Shown: piece after piece, positions 42 through 6,218 of the stretch
Position numbering within the stretch: the stretch's first letter is position 1
Layout of the letters: each line of letters begins with the position of its first letter
IMG/VR virus record: IMGVR_UViG_2558860274_000009
Location: 1-6,866 of that record
From: a virus
Taxonomy: Duplodnaviria; Heunggongvirae; Uroviricota; Caudoviricetes
DNA length: 6,866 bases
Direction: 5' to 3' (one strand)
Translations under genes and position numbers: made by a program
The notes under the pieces: model-generated
Seen by the model: only the letters and a program-made list of their open reading frames with translations
What the model was told of the DNA's origin: nothing
The model's database searches: none

Positions 42-148
42 GAATTGAAAAGTCCAGGCTGCAAAGTCTGGGCTTTTGTTGTATTAAGGCGCGAGAAAAT
101 TTTGCATCGCCCGTAAAAAATGGCTGGCTTTACACAAGGAATGTGGCA

Positions 149-1846
149 ATGAGTGGTGAAAAAAGGGCGAAAGGCTGGCGGTTTTATGGTCTTGTAGGTT
201 TTGGCGCAATAGCACTGCTTTCCGCGGGTGTCTGGGCATTGCAATATGCTGGCAGTGGGCCAGAAAAAACGTTGTCGCCTCTGGTGGTGCACAACAATCT
301 GCAAATCGATCTCAATGAGCCGGACCTCTTTCTCGACAGCGATTCGTTAAGCCAGCTTCCCAAAGACCTCCTCACAATTCCTTTTCTGCGCGATGTTCTA
401 AGTGAAGATTTTGTTTTTTATTATCAGAACCATGCTGACCGTCTGGGGATTGAAGGTAGTATTCGGCGCATTGTGTATGAACATGATTTAACGCTGAAAG
501 ATAAGCTCTTTTCTTCATTGTTAGACCAGCCAGCGCAAGCGGCGCTGTGGCACGACAAACAAGGCCATCTCTCGCATTATATCGTGCTGATTCAACGCAG
601 TGGTTTGAGTAAGTTATTGGAGCCGTTACTGTTTGCCGCCACCAGCGACAGCCAGTTAAGTAAGACGGAGATCAGTAGCATTACGATTAATAATGAAACC
701 ATACCTGTTTATCAACTGCGCTATAACGGCAATAACTCACTGCTGTTTACCCGTTATCAGGACAAGATGCTGGTTTTTTCCAGCACAGATATGTTGTTTA
801 AAGGCGACCAGCAGGATACCGAAGCCACGGCGATCGCGAGTGATTTGTTGAGCGGGAAAAAACACTGGGAGGCCAGCTTTGGCCTGGAAGACCGTTTACA
901 ATCCTCCGCTGAAAAAACACTTGTTCGCCAGCGTATCGTGGTTAGCGCTAATTTGCTGGGTTTAGGTTACCAGCGGTTAATTCCTTCTTTTGCTGGCGTG
1001 CGCTTTGAAATGAGCAATGATGGCTGGCGCAGCTTTCTGGCGTTGAATGATGAATCCGCCAGTGTCGATGCCAGTTTTGATTTCACTCCGGTATGGCGCA
1101 GTATGCCTGCTGGTGCCAGCTTCTGCGTGGCGCTGCCTTATTCGCACGGTATTGCCGAAGAGATGCTCTCGCATATCAGCCAGGAAAACGACAAATTGAG
1201 CGGGATGTTGGACGGTGCTGCCGGGCTATGCTGGTATGAAGATTCCAGGTTGCAAACCCCCCTGTTTGTTGGCCAATTTGATGGCGCTGCCGAGCAAGCG
1301 CAACTGCCAGGGAAGCTGTTTACACAAACAATCGGGGCCCTCGAGAGCAAAGCACCTGAAGGTGTGTTGCCGGTAACGCAAACACAACAGGGCGACGCGC
1401 AAATCTGGCGGCGTGAAGTCAGCTCCCGTTATGGTCAGTATCCCGCAGCCCAGGCGGCGAAACCAGAACAACTGATGTCCGATTATTTTTTCCGCGTCTC
1501 GCTGGCGATGCAGAACAAGACGCTGATTTTCTCCCTTGACGACACGCTGGTCAATAACGCGCTGCAAACGCTGAACAAAACGCGCCCGGCAATGGTGGAT
1601 GTAATACCGGCTGATGGCGTCATTCCGGTCTATATCAATCCACAAGGGGTGGCAAAATTACTGCGTAATGAAACATTGGCCAGCTTGCCAAAAAACCTTG
1701 AGCCTGTTTTTTATAACGCAGCGCAGACTTTATTAATGCCGAAGCTGGACGCTTTATCGCAACAACCCCGTTATGCAATGAAACTGGTCAAGATGGAGCC
1801 CGGGGCTGCCTGGCAGTGGTTGCCTGTTAGCTGGCAACCATTATGA
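149..1846 (+). CDS. yfaA: YfaA-like protein (DUF2138 family), member of the yfaS alpha-2-macroglobulin operon
   Basis: Long ORF (track 143..1846, GTG at 143). ATG at 149 is preferred because AAGGA at 135-139 gives a 9-nt spacer. N-terminal hydrophobic segment [25 protein letters not shown] suggests a signal anchor. Protein recognised from memory as E. coli YfaA; gene order yfaA then yfaT matches the K-12 locus. Confidence 0.85.
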
Positions 1847-2469
1847 GGCGCGTGTTGTCGGCGCTGATTTGCTGGCTGTTTTGTTTTTTCGCCCATAGCG
1901 AAATGCTGGATGTCGAACAATCGGGACTATTTCGTGCCTGGTTTGTGCGCATTGCCCAGGAACAACTTCGTCAGGGGCCAAGCCCACGTTGGTATCAGCA
2001 GGATTGCGCGGGTCTGGTGCGCTTTGCGGCAAACGAGGCGTTGAAAGTTCATGACAGTAAATGGCTAAAAAATAACAGCATATCTAACCAATATCTGCCG
2101 CCGGAGATGGCGCTAACACCTGAACAGCGGCAATTGGCACAAAACTGGAGCCAGGGGAATGGGAAAACTGGCCCCTATGTGACCGCAATTAATTTGATTC
2201 AGTACAACAGCCATTTTATTGGCCAGGACATAAACCAGGCGTTGCCTGGCGATATGATTTTTTTCGATCAGGGCGATGACCAGCACTTAATGGTATGGAT
2301 GGGACGTTACATCATCTACCACACCGGAAGCGCCACAAAAACTGACAACGGAATGCGCGCAGTCAGTCTGCAACAACTTATGACATGGAAGTTGTATATT
2401 AAAAATTTCATTAATTATCAATATGTTAATGTGCGCTGGTCATTATTAATCAAAATAAAACCATTATGA
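1843..2469 (+). CDS. yfaT: YfaT-like protein (DUF1175 family); 3' end appears to be encoded by prophage arm DNA
   Basis: 208-codon ORF. ATG at 1843 overlaps the yfaA stop (ATGA), indicating translational coupling. N-terminus [19 protein letters not shown] looks like a signal peptide. Composition switches to AT-rich at about 2378, so the last ~28 codons lie in the phage attachment arm. Confidence 0.7.
2376..2463. other. attL: attL-like region: candidate core (about 2376-2390) plus phage P' arm with arm-type Int-binding-like motifs
   Basis: Region 2391-2446 aligns by eye with the lambda P' arm (lambda GTTGGCATTATAAAAAAGCATTGCTTATCAATTTGTTGCAACGAACAGGTCACTAT versus window gttgtatattaaaaatttcattaattatcaatatgttaatgtgcgctggtcattat). 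Arm-type-like GGTCATTAT and AACCATTAT precede the int stop, as in lambda. The 15 bp at the core position (acttatgacatggaa) differ from the lambda core. Sharp GC to AT switch at about 2378. Confidence 0.5.
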
Positions 2470-3730: not shown

Positions 3731-3750
3731 CGCAAAGTCTCCGCAATTAC

Positions 3751-3776
3751 ACGCAAGAAAAGCCGCATTGATGCGG
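3751..3776 (-). terminator. Hairpin plus T-tract on the minus strand just upstream of xis
   Basis: Perfect 7-bp stem GCCGCAT / loop TG / ATGCGGC (3761-3776). On the minus strand it is followed by TTTTCTTG. Lambda has a hairpin at the equivalent position as recalled. Confidence 0.3.
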
Positions 3777-3953
3777 CAATGGTAGGTCTGGATATCTTGA
3801 GAAATGAACAGGCCTCATTGAGTGTGAGGCTGTGGTTAGTCCTTGCGTAGCTCGCTAATTCTTCTGTAAGTCTCTGGTGCTTTGTTTCCGTGTATCTTCA
3901 TTTCAGACTTCAACAGAGCGACGAGGGAATCCCATTCGTTGAGGATGCCTTTG

Positions 3954-4088
3954 AATAACCTGGTTGCCCAGGGCAATGTTCTGCCTGTTCTGTACGGTGA
4001 ACTGCGCGTGGGGTCACGTGTGGTCTCTCAGGAGATCAGCACGGCAGATGAAGGGGATGGTGGTCAGGTTGTGGTTATTGGTCGCTGA
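3954..4088 (+). pseudogene. I: 3' fragment (last ~45 codons) of tail assembly protein gene I
   Basis: Translation NNLVAQGNVLPVLYGELRVGSRVVSQEISTADEGDGGQVVVIGR* matches the C-terminus of lambda gpI as recalled. The upstream part of track ORF 3882..4088 (MFPCIFISDFNRATRESHSLRMPL) has no I-like character, so this is a truncated remnant. Confidence 0.65.
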
Positions 4089-4089
4089 T

Positions 4090-4115
4090 AATCACCGCCA
4101 GCTATGACGGTGATT
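4090..4115. terminator. Inverted repeat between the convergent I fragment and sodC (possible bidirectional terminator)
   Basis: AATCACCG (4090-4097) ... CGGTGATT (4108-4115), 8-bp stem with 10-nt loop, immediately after the I stop and 15 bp past the sodC stop. No strong T-tract. Confidence 0.3.
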
Positions 4116-4130
4116 GCTTTAGGCTGTTTG

Positions 4131-4652
4131 TTATTTAATTATTCCGCATGCCAGTCTTGCGCCCCCACCCCCCAGAGGAGCAGGTGAATCGGAATGATTA
4201 TCCCCTCCGGCATGAATCATGATCGCCCGTTCTTTTATCTGGCTTATTTTTTTTATTTTTGGACTCAGAACCGGGTTTTCTGCATTTCCTTCTGAGTTGA
4301 CATAGAGTGCTGGTAGATCACCCAGATGGCCCTCCGGATTGTACGGCCCAAGATGTTTATTTGTTTGTTCAGGATCATAATGCCCACCGGCAGCAAGAGC
4401 TGGCACTTTTTTTCCATTAATCAGACCGGGATCACAACTGGCATTTTCATGGATATGAAAGCCATGTAACCCTGGTGGCAGTTCTTTCAGATGAGGAGTG
4501 AACAGCAATCCGTAGCTGGTTTCTGAAATAGTTATTTCCCCTATATTTTTCCCTACTCCTTCTGAGGAAACGAGATTTACAGGGATCGTCATTGTATCAG
4601 CCATTACGGCTCCACTAAGTAGCGCAGTTACAGCAAGTATTTTTTTTATCAT
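4131..4652 (-). CDS. sodC: Periplasmic Cu,Zn superoxide dismutase, prophage-borne (moron)
   Basis: 173 aa. Signal peptide MIKKILAVTALLSGAVMA. Cu,Zn-SOD motifs HGFHIHE, GGHYDP, GHLGDLP, HAGGDNHSD and C-terminal GGGGARLACGIIK. Opposite orientation to the flanking tail genes. Confidence 0.9.
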   Translation of the reverse strand: MIKKILAVTALLSGAVMADTMTIPVNLVSSEGVGKNIGEITISETSYGLLFTPHLKELPPGLHGFHIHENASCDPGLINGKKVPALAAGGHYDPEQTNKHLGPYNPEGHLGDLPALYVNSEGNAENPVLSPKIKKISQIKERAIMIHAGGDNHSDSPAPLGGGGARLACGIIK

Positions 4653-4785
4653 AAATACCCCGTCATTTCGTGTTGTTAATCAAGGTGATTTAAGTTTTAA
4701 CAAATGAAATACAACAGATGCATTTTTGTTGCAAGCGGTCGTTATATGGTTCGCATAAAATTGATTACTGTTTCGGGAATTATCT

Positions 4786-5162
4786 ATGGGTAAAGGTGGC
4801 AGTAAGGGGCATACCCCGCGCGAAGCGAAGGACAACCTGAAATCATCCCAGATGCTGAGCGTGATAGACGCCATCAGTGAAGGGCCGATTGAAGGTCCGG
4901 TGGACGGATTAAAAAGTGTGCTGCTGAACAGTACGCCAGTGCTGGACAGTGAGGGGAATACCAATATCTCCGGTGTCACGGTGGTGTTCCGGGCAGGTGA
5001 GCAGGAGCAGACACCGCCGGAGGGATTTGAATCCTCCGGCTCCGAGACGGTGCTGGGTACGGAAGTGAAGTACGACACACCGATTACCCGGACCATCACG
5101 TCGGCAAACATCGACCGTCTGCGCTTTACCTTCGGTGTTCAGGCACTGGTGGAAACCGAATC
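4786..5162 (+). pseudogene. J: 5' fragment (~125 codons) of tail tip / host specificity gene J, joined out of frame to collagen-like sequence
   Basis: [124 protein letters not shown] matches the lambda gpJ N-terminus as recalled. After about 5162 the same frame gives Arg/Pro/Gly-rich out-of-frame text to a stop at 5361. Full J is about 1130 aa. Confidence 0.75.
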
Positions 5163-5168
5163 CCCACC

Positions 5169-5738
5169 GTGGAGGGACCTCCCGGGCCAAAGGGGGAACA
5201 GGGGCCCGCTGGCCCTCAGGGGCCGAAGGGTGATAAGGGAGAGCGTGGTGACACCGGTCCTGTCGGGGCAACCGGCGAACGGGGACCGAGAGGAGATACA
5301 GGTCCGGCAGGCCCGCAGGGGTCGAAAGGCGACAGGGGGGAACGGGGAGAGACCGGTCTGACGGGAAGTACAGGTCCACAGGGGCCAAAGGGAGATACTG
5401 GTGCAGCAGGCCCGGCAGGCCCACAGGGACCGAAAGGCGAAACAGGAGCGGCAGGTCCGGTGGGGGCTACCGGACCTCAGGGGCCGAAGGGAGACCCGGG
5501 CGAGACACAAATCCGTTTTCGTCTGGGGCCGATGAGCATTATTGAGACAAACAGCTATGGCTGGTTCCCGGATACAGATGGTGCGCTCATCACCGGACTG
5601 ACCTTTCTTGACCCCAAAGATGCCACACAGGTTCAGGGGATGTTTCAGCATTTGCAGGTCAGGTTTGGTGACGGGCCGTGGCAGGATGTTAAGGGGCTGG
5701 ATGAAGTGGGCAGTGATACAGGCAGAACAGGAGAATGA
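5169..5738 (+). CDS. Collagen-like phage tail fibre protein, 5'-truncated (collagen triple-helix repeats plus C-terminal globular domain)
   Basis: This frame is open from 5031 with no ATG; the track start is GTG at 5169 and has no Shine-Dalgarno. 36 uninterrupted Gly-X-Y triplets (5175-5498), then a non-repetitive C-terminal domain ([77 protein letters not shown]). Typical of collagen-like side tail fibre proteins of EHEC prophages. Probably a remnant rather than an expressed gene. Confidence 0.6.
5175..5504 (+). repeat. Collagen-like Gly-X-Y coding repeat (36 consecutive triplets), GC-rich
   Basis: Direct reading of frame 3: [108 protein letters not shown], then GE. Confidence 0.9.
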
Positions 5739-5739
5739 C

Positions 5740-6009
5740 ATGAATATACTAAAAAAACTTATGCAGTGTCTGTGTGGTTGCGGAAAGCATGATGGCCGTG
5801 AACACGTGCAGTCGCCTACAGCACAGCTGCGACTGGGACCGGCAGACATTCTGGAGTCCGATGAGAATGGCATTATCCCGGAGCAGGCCAGGGTAATCAC
5901 GCAGGTGGTGATACTGGATGCGGATAAAAAGCAGATACAGTGCGTGGTAAGACCGCTGCAAATTCTGCGTGCTGACGGGACGTGGGAAAATATTGGCTGG
6001 ATGAAGTAA
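5740..6009 (+). CDS. Hypothetical small protein (89 aa) coupled to the tail-fibre gene
   Basis: ATG at 5740 preceded by AGGAG (5727-5731) and starting 1 nt after the tail-fibre stop (TGA 5736-5738). Sequence MNILKKLMQCLCGCGKHDG... has a Cys-rich N-terminus. Followed by a strong terminator. Track ORF 5608..6009 is the same frame with an upstream ATG that lies inside the tail-fibre gene and has no RBS. Confidence 0.55.
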   Translation: MNILKKLMQCLCGCGKHDGREHVQSPTAQLRLGPADILESDENGIIPEQARVITQVVILDADKKQIQCVVRPLQILRADGTWENIGWMK

Positions 6010-6025
6010 CCCGACAGCTTCACAA

Positions 6026-6050
6026 AACCGGAGTCTGGCTCCGGTTTTTT
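6026..6050 (+). terminator. Rho-independent terminator after the 89-aa ORF
   Basis: AAAA / CCGGAG (6028-6033) - loop TCTGG - CTCCGG (6039-6044) followed by TTTTTT (6045-6050). Confidence 0.65.
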
Positions 6051-6072
6051 GTTGTCATGTCATGGTGATGTT

Positions 6073-6087
6073 TGTTAATGAAGTTAA
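6073..6087 (+). repeat. Direct repeat copy 1 (TGTTAATGAAGTTAA) upstream of nleG
   Basis: Exact 15-bp match to 6191-6205, 118 bp apart, in the AT-rich region upstream of the effector gene. Confidence 0.7.
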
Positions 6088-6190
6088 ATTTATTTTGGCT
6101 TGATAATGGAGTCTTATCTTTTGCAAGACTGATAATGGTGTGTGAAAGCATTGTGATAAGTAAGATGCTTCAACAGGAAATCAAGTAAAA

Positions 6191-6205
6191 TGTTAATGAA
6201 GTTAA
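6191..6205 (+). repeat. Direct repeat copy 2 (TGTTAATGAAGTTAA), immediately upstream of the nleG ribosome-binding site
   Basis: Exact 15-bp match to 6073-6087; ends 13 bp before the nleG ATG. Confidence 0.7.
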
Positions 6206-6218
6206 TGGGGGTTTTATT

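Follow-up and report, generated by a model that had tools for sequence, protein, structure and literature searches.

We conclude with considerable confidence that the 3′ end of yfaT in Escherichia albertii KF1 is occupied by the attL of an HK022-type lambdoid prophage remnant, that the 25 residues which this element adds to YfaT are an accidental by-product of integration, and that YfaT is likely impaired. The stretch of DNA that was analyzed (hereafter the window; 6,866 bases) is identical to a segment of the KF1 genome (CP007025.1; L009, 8159-15024). It contains yfaA, the host gene upstream of yfaT with which yfaT shares an operon, the chimeric yfaT itself, and part of the prophage remnant (Table 1), from which the regulatory, replication, and morphogenesis genes have all been lost. 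Internal deletions are evident in the remnant (3731-4130 and 4786-5738), and a gpJ N-terminal fragment adjoins the collagen-repeat tail-fibre ORF at ~5160-5169. A 68-aa ORF that follows xis (3731-4130) is without a family match, and a 440-aa ORF on the minus strand outside the window, between nleG and attR (L009 15721-17040), has no Pfam match.

In the mechanism that we propose, HK022-type Int would have catalyzed site-specific recombination at a 15-bp core in the 3′ end of yfaT, to which the HK022-like module would have been steered by a different 7-bp overlap. Strand exchange would then have fused the first 183 codons of yfaT to the P′ arm of the phage, and the ribosome would translate the arm DNA until it meets a TGA overlapping with the stop codon of int. 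The resulting tail would displace a conserved, structured segment of 24 residues, including a β-strand of the MagC fold. Because the sequence of the arm is set by its IHF and Int arm-binding sites, the 25-residue tail would be an accidental by-product.

Table 1. Features of the window and of the attachment sites. Positions refer to the window unless another record is given.
Feature	Position	Strand	Basis
yfaA (DUF2138, MagB-like)	143-1846	+	ORF; Pfam DUF2138, 4.4e-275
yfaT, chimeric, 208 aa	1843-2469	+	ORF
Host-derived part of yfaT, codons 1-183, ending ...LMTWK	1843-2391	+	Identity to empty-site E. albertii
att core of attL, 15 bp, CTTATGACATGGAAG	2377-2391		Comparison of attL, attR, and attB
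TGACATGGAAG, exact identity of attL, attR, and attB	2381-2391		
Phage-encoded YfaT tail, 25 codons plus TGA stop	2392-2469	+	Translation; without homology to the empty site
P′ arm of HK022/lambda-type attachment site	2392-2467		Alignment with HK022 and lambda attP
Putative IHF H′-like site, TATCAATATGTTA	2416-2428		Homology; match to IHF consensus WATCAANNNNTTR
Putative arm-type Int-site homologue, TGGTCATTAT	2437-2446		Homology, pattern position
Putative arm-type Int-site homologue, TAATCAAAAT	2447-2456		Homology, pattern position
Putative arm-type Int-site homologue, AAACCATTAT	2458-2467		Homology, pattern position
int, HK022-type heterobivalent tyrosine integrase, 356 aa	2464-3534	-	Identity to HK022 Int; Pfam
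xis, excisionase, 72 aa	3512-3730	-	Pfam Exc, 3.6e-41
Prophage remnant, remainder within the window	3731-6866		Pfam matches
sodC, Cu/Zn superoxide dismutase, cargo	4131-4652	-	Pfam
gpJ N-terminal fragment (FNIII-A)	4786-5160		Pfam
Collagen-like tail-fibre ORF (collagen repeats)	5169-5738		Pfam
Tail-fibre C-terminal ORF	5740-6009		Pfam
nleG, NleG-family type III effector, cargo	6219-6866	+	Pfam
attR core, CTTCTGACATGGAAG	L009 17609-17623 (outside the window, 7,074 bp from attL)		
Predicted attB junction, CTTATGACATGGAAGGACACC			
Predicted attP junction, CTTCTGACATGGAAGTTGTAT			

Junction between host and phage DNA

The preliminary description of this DNA drew attention to an abrupt change in composition at the end of yfaT, and this is borne out by the GC content, which is 50.2% in the body of yfaT (1843-2376), 20.8% between 2392 and 2463, and 48.7% in int. 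The crossover had been placed at about position 2378. That position does lie inside yfaT, but it is the second base of the 15-bp core, and unambiguous phage DNA begins at 2392. When the window was compared by megablast with 5,426 complete E. coli genomes, the match in prophage-free E. coli, including K-12, ran only through position 2391; in 176 of the genomes (~3%), it continued through the AT-rich stretch into int. An intact attB is present in 5,201 of the 5,426, and a junction identical to that of the window was also found in at least eight E. albertii assemblies.

A same-species control is provided by the E. albertii type strain, NBRC 107761, in which the site is empty. Up to position 2391, its DNA and that of the window agree at 99.1% of bases; beyond that point, only 3-8 bases in every 20 match, the level expected at random. 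At the protein level, 183/183 residues of YfaT are identical in the two strains before the tails diverge, and a comparison with K-12 YfaT places the breakpoint at the same position, after K183 (...LMTWK), where a native tail of 24 aa gives way to one of 25 aa. The native protein is therefore not identical to that of the window through to its final residue, and the last codons of yfaT do derive from phage arm DNA, as had been suggested, since these 25 codons are the P′ arm. Details of the earlier account needed adjustment: the yfaT frame indeed stays open into the arm, but for 25 sense codons (2392-2466) rather than about 28, and it does end inside the 3′ end of int, with an overlap of 6 nt rather than 5 (TTATGA, 2464-2469), which is made up of the int stop codon (TTA on the plus strand, 2464-2466) and that of yfaT (TGA, 2467-2469).

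We give almost no credence to the idea that no integration took place, and that the 3′ end of this yfaT represents either native, lineage-specific divergence in E. albertii or an assembly artefact. Species divergence does exist, the yfaT genes of the window and of E. coli sharing only ~90% identity. However, the native tail is present at the empty site of the same species, the DNA that encodes the tail has 83% identity with the P′ arm of HK022 and adjoins an HK022-type int, an attR carrying the displaced native 3′ end lies 7 kb downstream, and the identical junction recurs in the 176 E. coli genomes and the E. albertii assemblies noted above.

Variation at the site was seen in E. coli ECMA0423, a species representative, whose empty site reads GACACCCATCGATACCC in place of GACACCCGATGGATACCC (L043, reverse complement, ~4487); in this variant, the native YfaT tail is changed and the ATG of yfaS is lost. 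A 252-bp low-coverage contig labelled Chromohalobacter sp. (L038) contains Escherichia-type yfaT sequence, which probably reflects contamination of that assembly.

Attachment sites and the yfaS operon

Comparison of attL, attR, and attB yielded a core of the form CTT(A/C)TGACATGGAAG, within which exact identity extends over 11 bp. The sequence TGACATGGAAG is common to attL in the window, attR in KF1 (L009), attB in K-12 and NBRC 107761, and a contiguous attP in IMG/VR contigs. From the alignment with the HK022 core, CTTT[AGGTGAA]TAAG, we infer that the 7-bp overlap is TGACATG (2381-2387). Measured from core to core, the element in KF1 comprises 7,074 bp. Its attR (ctccttcTGACATGGAAGgacacccgATGgataccc) has kept the native 3′ end of yfaT (KDTRW...LAR and the stop codon), together with the yfaS start codon, and this native 3′ end is identical to that of the empty-site strain at 599 of 600 positions. 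On the attR side, the P arm (L009 17380-17623) can be aligned with its counterparts in HK022 and lambda, the sib hairpin region included. With its integrase, P′ arm, shared core, and matching attR, the feature is, as far as can be judged from sequence, the attL of an HK022/lambda-type (heterobivalent tyrosine integrase) site.

In IMG/VR, 16 contigs contain an unbroken copy of the attP junction that we reconstructed, CTTCTGACATGGAAGTTG. In 12 of them, the P′ side of this junction is immediately followed by an int gene (82-89% aa identity), and neither yfaT nor yfaS is found in the vicinity. These contigs could be tandem prophages instead of free phage genomes. No contiguous attP was found among GenBank phages in a megablast search with the arm and int; in HK022, mEp235, Gally, H19J, and Stx1a phages, the similarity begins only at the AAG of the core.

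The core is located 8 nt upstream of the longest in-frame ATG of yfaS, which encodes the alpha-2-macroglobulin (L009 17613-17640). The native tail of yfaT and the yfaS gene have 67 nt in common (L001 2039-2124). At attR, the yfaS start and the 8 nt upstream of it are left intact. The whole prophage now lies between yfaA-yfaT and yfaS-yfaQ-yfaP. Insertion at this point thus cuts yfaS-yfaQ-yfaP off from the upstream part of the operon, and we would expect a polar effect in which yfaS, yfaQ, and yfaP are separated from the upstream promoter. When the attR P arm was scanned for promoters that might drive yfaS, three promoter-like sites were obtained, where 4.4 would be expected. As regards yfaS itself, the region of overlap with yfaT encodes a signal-peptide-like N-terminus, and its ribosome-binding site may be GGAAGGA, which lies partly in the core and partly beyond it; in the RefSeq annotation of K-12, the yfaS pseudogene starts instead at a downstream GTG.

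Both yfaA and yfaS are intact ORFs in KF1, where decay of the operon is not obvious, a point that tells against our reading. Several other E. albertii strains (L003, L004, and L008, ~10627-10843) have a deletion of int-xis, with the chimeric yfaT and sodC kept. One strain has an IS66 upstream of yfaT at the position where others have yfaA (L007 6328-8640), and no yfaA gene was called in L004, L007, and L008. The loss of int-xis and the disruption of yfaA are consistent with a fixed remnant in a dispensable operon.

Given that attR keeps the native 3′ end, excision in silico regenerates a 207-aa gene. One might therefore regard the element as a reversible switch of the regulated gene integrity type, which turns yfaT off and uncouples yfaS-yfaQ-yfaP until excision by Int and Xis, under some particular condition, restores the operon. 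Such a role would fit with the intact int and xis ORFs of KF1, with the intact cores of attL and attR, the latter joined to the exact native 3′ end, and with the appearance of yfaT/DUF1175 among the regulated gene integrity candidates of the TIGER survey (Mageeney et al., 2020; PMC7192596). We nevertheless consider it unlikely, because the regulatory genes of the phage are gone, leaving nothing known to control int and xis, and because the E. albertii strains that lack int-xis yet have a chimeric yfaT, some of them with a disrupted yfaA, look like the outcome of fixation and decay.

The phage-derived tail of YfaT

It had been proposed that the element may alter the C-terminus of one component of the alpha-2-macroglobulin system, which is encoded by the Mag/Yfa operon, and that it seems to provide yfaT with a substitute 3′ end, a strategy described as common among phages whose attB lies inside a gene. 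The first part is correct, in that the native tail has been replaced by 25 phage-arm residues. The second part, in its adaptive form, would mean that the arm evolved to keep yfaT open and to provide a working C-terminus, so as to make integration harmless in the style of phage 21 or e14 in icd. The location of attB within coding sequence is in keeping with this idea, but the tail is unlike the native one, conserved residues are lost, and the length of the tail is variable.

The native tail ranks among the best-conserved regions of the family. Across 43 diverse homologues, it has 12 invariant positions out of 24, plus 4 that are almost invariant, and all 16 of these are lost in the chimera. The native tail is also kept almost unchanged in Pseudomonas aeruginosa MagC (PDB 7BK8) and across a wider list of homologues. 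Although a short NFI motif is found in both tails, as might be expected of a substitute, their overall similarity is at the level of shuffled sequences and is not significant (Smith-Waterman score 19, P = 0.30 against shuffles).

The body of the chimera is still that of a clear member of the MagC/DUF1175 family, with a Pfam match that covers residues 20-182 (profile positions 20-202 of 226; 157.9 bits, 3.6e-46). In native K-12 YfaT, the match extends to residue 205 (profile positions 20-225; 195.9 bits); the fall from 195.9 to 157.9 bits is in part due to species divergence between K-12 and E. albertii. A full-length PF06672 match that includes the C-terminal DTRWIP..NPNFIG.YRL.FL segment was not obtained with the chimera. 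In AlphaFold models, the native tail has a pLDDT of 90-94 and contains a β-strand at 196-202, whereas the chimeric tail stays below 60 (47-57). Since, in the region of the chimeric tail, the underlying alignment is built from native tails, we use this comparison as supporting evidence only, and it is not a measure of stability.

If the tail were a working C-terminus, it might be expected to be conserved across independent yfaT lysogens, but such conservation is largely absent. Related elements at the same core specify tails of 3, 7, 18, 25, or 44 residues. Elements in S. flexneri with the same junction encode a tail of three codons (LHV, then stop). In the complete genome of E. coli 03_3469, an A-run is one base shorter, which results in a frameshifted tail of 18 aa, and attP variants have predicted tails of 7 aa (LFVQKSY, then stop) or 44 aa. 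The run in question lies near the start of the P′ arm (AAAAA, 2401-2405 in the window) and is A4 or A5 among near-identical arms (those compared being the window, L034 at ~852-855, L018, L020, L022, L024, and L032); the change from A4 to A5 shifts the yfaT frame, giving 18 versus 25 aa, or 44 versus 7 aa. We considered whether the tail LYIKIS of E. coli P0003 was an artefact of a contig end, but rejected this explanation in light of the real one-base-shorter A-run in genome 03_3469.

Also in favor of adaptation is the open frame itself, with 25 open codons in DNA of 21% GC. In the homologous frame, the arms of HK022, the Stx1a phage, and lambda have a stop at codon 4, and those of HK022 and the Stx1a phage have another at codon 11. 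These stops are missing from the window arm, and the chimera is 208 aa long, compared with 207 aa for the native protein. The loss of stops and the near-native length could hint at selection; however, a frame of 25 open codons occurs in 7.5% of shuffles at the composition of the arm (P = 0.075), so that openness alone is not beyond chance. Published surveys, moreover, class yfaT as disrupted. On balance, we regard an adaptive substitute 3′ end as highly unlikely. A related reading, in which the open tail is no accident, but arose when the phage lineage lost the two stops of HK022, so that a near-native YfaT is made and the element acts as a reversible or modulatory switch of the Yfa/Mag operon, strikes us as distinctly unlikely. 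Such a switch might also use an HK022-like outward promoter antisense to yfaT. In HK022, an outward-reading promoter near attL drives torS (PMC6814406); were it conserved at ~2392-2600 of the window on the minus strand, the transcript would be antisense to yfaT-yfaA.

Our preferred reading is thus one of ordinary gene disruption and not of phage-supplied repair, the sequence evidence speaking against the phage tail as a functional substitute. YfaT is most likely inactivated or impaired, although the chimera could retain partial activity. The insertion probably disables YfaT and uncouples yfaS, the type II alpha-2-macroglobulin gene, from its operon, and because many strains of E. albertii carry it, as do ~3% of the complete genomes of E. 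coli, this could matter for studies of a poorly understood periplasmic system. The main practical value of the finding lies in annotation. In RefSeq, the 208-aa form is named "DUF1175 domain-containing protein"; since this protein is a chimera of host and phage sequence, family alignments and structural work should not count it among the natural variants of YfaT/MagC.

Comparison with known systems

Disruption of yfaT by a prophage is already known, and is an ordinary kind of event that will not surprise specialists. The gene is among the conserved genes found to be disrupted by prophage integration (Bobay et al., 2013; PMC3603311), and the TIGER survey reported that, in E. coli, HMM coverage of DUF1175 falls from 18-216 in the uninterrupted gene to 18-194 in the interrupted one (PMC7192596), a reduction that mirrors the loss of Pfam coverage in the window YfaT. 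Both entries concern E. coli, whereas the window derives from an E. albertii remnant, but they describe the same gene and the same type of event. Neither the HK022-type nature of the module nor the frame variability of the tail was found in the text and supplements of these studies that were searched (PMC3603311 and PMC7192596).

As in the case of phage 21 and e14, attB is located in the 3′ end of a coding gene, which receives new terminal codons from the end of the prophage. Those two elements integrate in icd and supply a duplicated 3′ end that preserves function. The length of the icd ORF is likewise preserved upon integration (Bobay et al., 2013; PMC3603311). Unlike the situation at icd, the tail acquired by yfaT is unrelated to the residues it replaces, varies in length, and removes a conserved segment; the two hallmarks of the icd type, similarity of the tail to the displaced residues and its conservation among elements, are both absent.

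Lambda shares the architecture of the P′ arm, and the names given here to the IHF and arm-type sites are taken from the established anatomy of the lambda att site, by homology only. The integration site of lambda is intergenic, between gal and bio, and its core, GCTTTTTTATACTAA, differs from that of the window. The arm had originally been aligned with the lambda P′ arm. That alignment stands, at 67% identity, but the HK022 arm is closer, at 83%, and with an amino acid identity of 97% between the window Int and that of HK022, compared with 76% for the lambda enzyme, lambda was rejected as the closest relative.

The resemblance to HK022 extends to the whole integration module, with homologous P and P′ arms and a Xis that is also encoded in the window. 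Int has an N-terminal arm-binding domain (Pfam Arm-DNA-bind_1, 7.3e-29) and a catalytic domain (Phage_integrase, 4e-41), and shares with HK022 the residues D99, P282, K283, K287, and R319, at positions which we take to be those that separate HK022 from lambda core specificity; the role of Int residues in this distinction was reportedly worked out by Dorgai, Yagil, and Weisberg. Apart from the two stops of its P′ arm, in the frame that the window arm keeps open, HK022 differs in the center of the core. The flanks, CTT...AAGTTG, are common to both, but HK022 has CCTTT[AGGTGAA]TAAGTTG where the window has CCTTC[TGACATG]GAAGTTG. The target differs as well: HK022 integrates in the torS-torT intergenic spacer, as do Stx1a phages with the HK022 core, whereas the element described here occupies yfaT coding sequence at the yfaT/yfaS junction, and the attB specificity of HK022 (overlap AGGTGAA, integration at torS-torT) was not found in it. 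HK022 Int tolerates an arbitrary 7-bp overlap, provided that attP and attB match (PMC7736782), and an overlap of TGACATG instead of AGGTGAA would thus redirect integration from torS-torT to yfaT. Natural isolates would therefore show an HK022-type module that has been redirected to a new chromosomal site by the central bases of its core alone, in agreement with the experimentally known promiscuity of HK022 toward the overlap.
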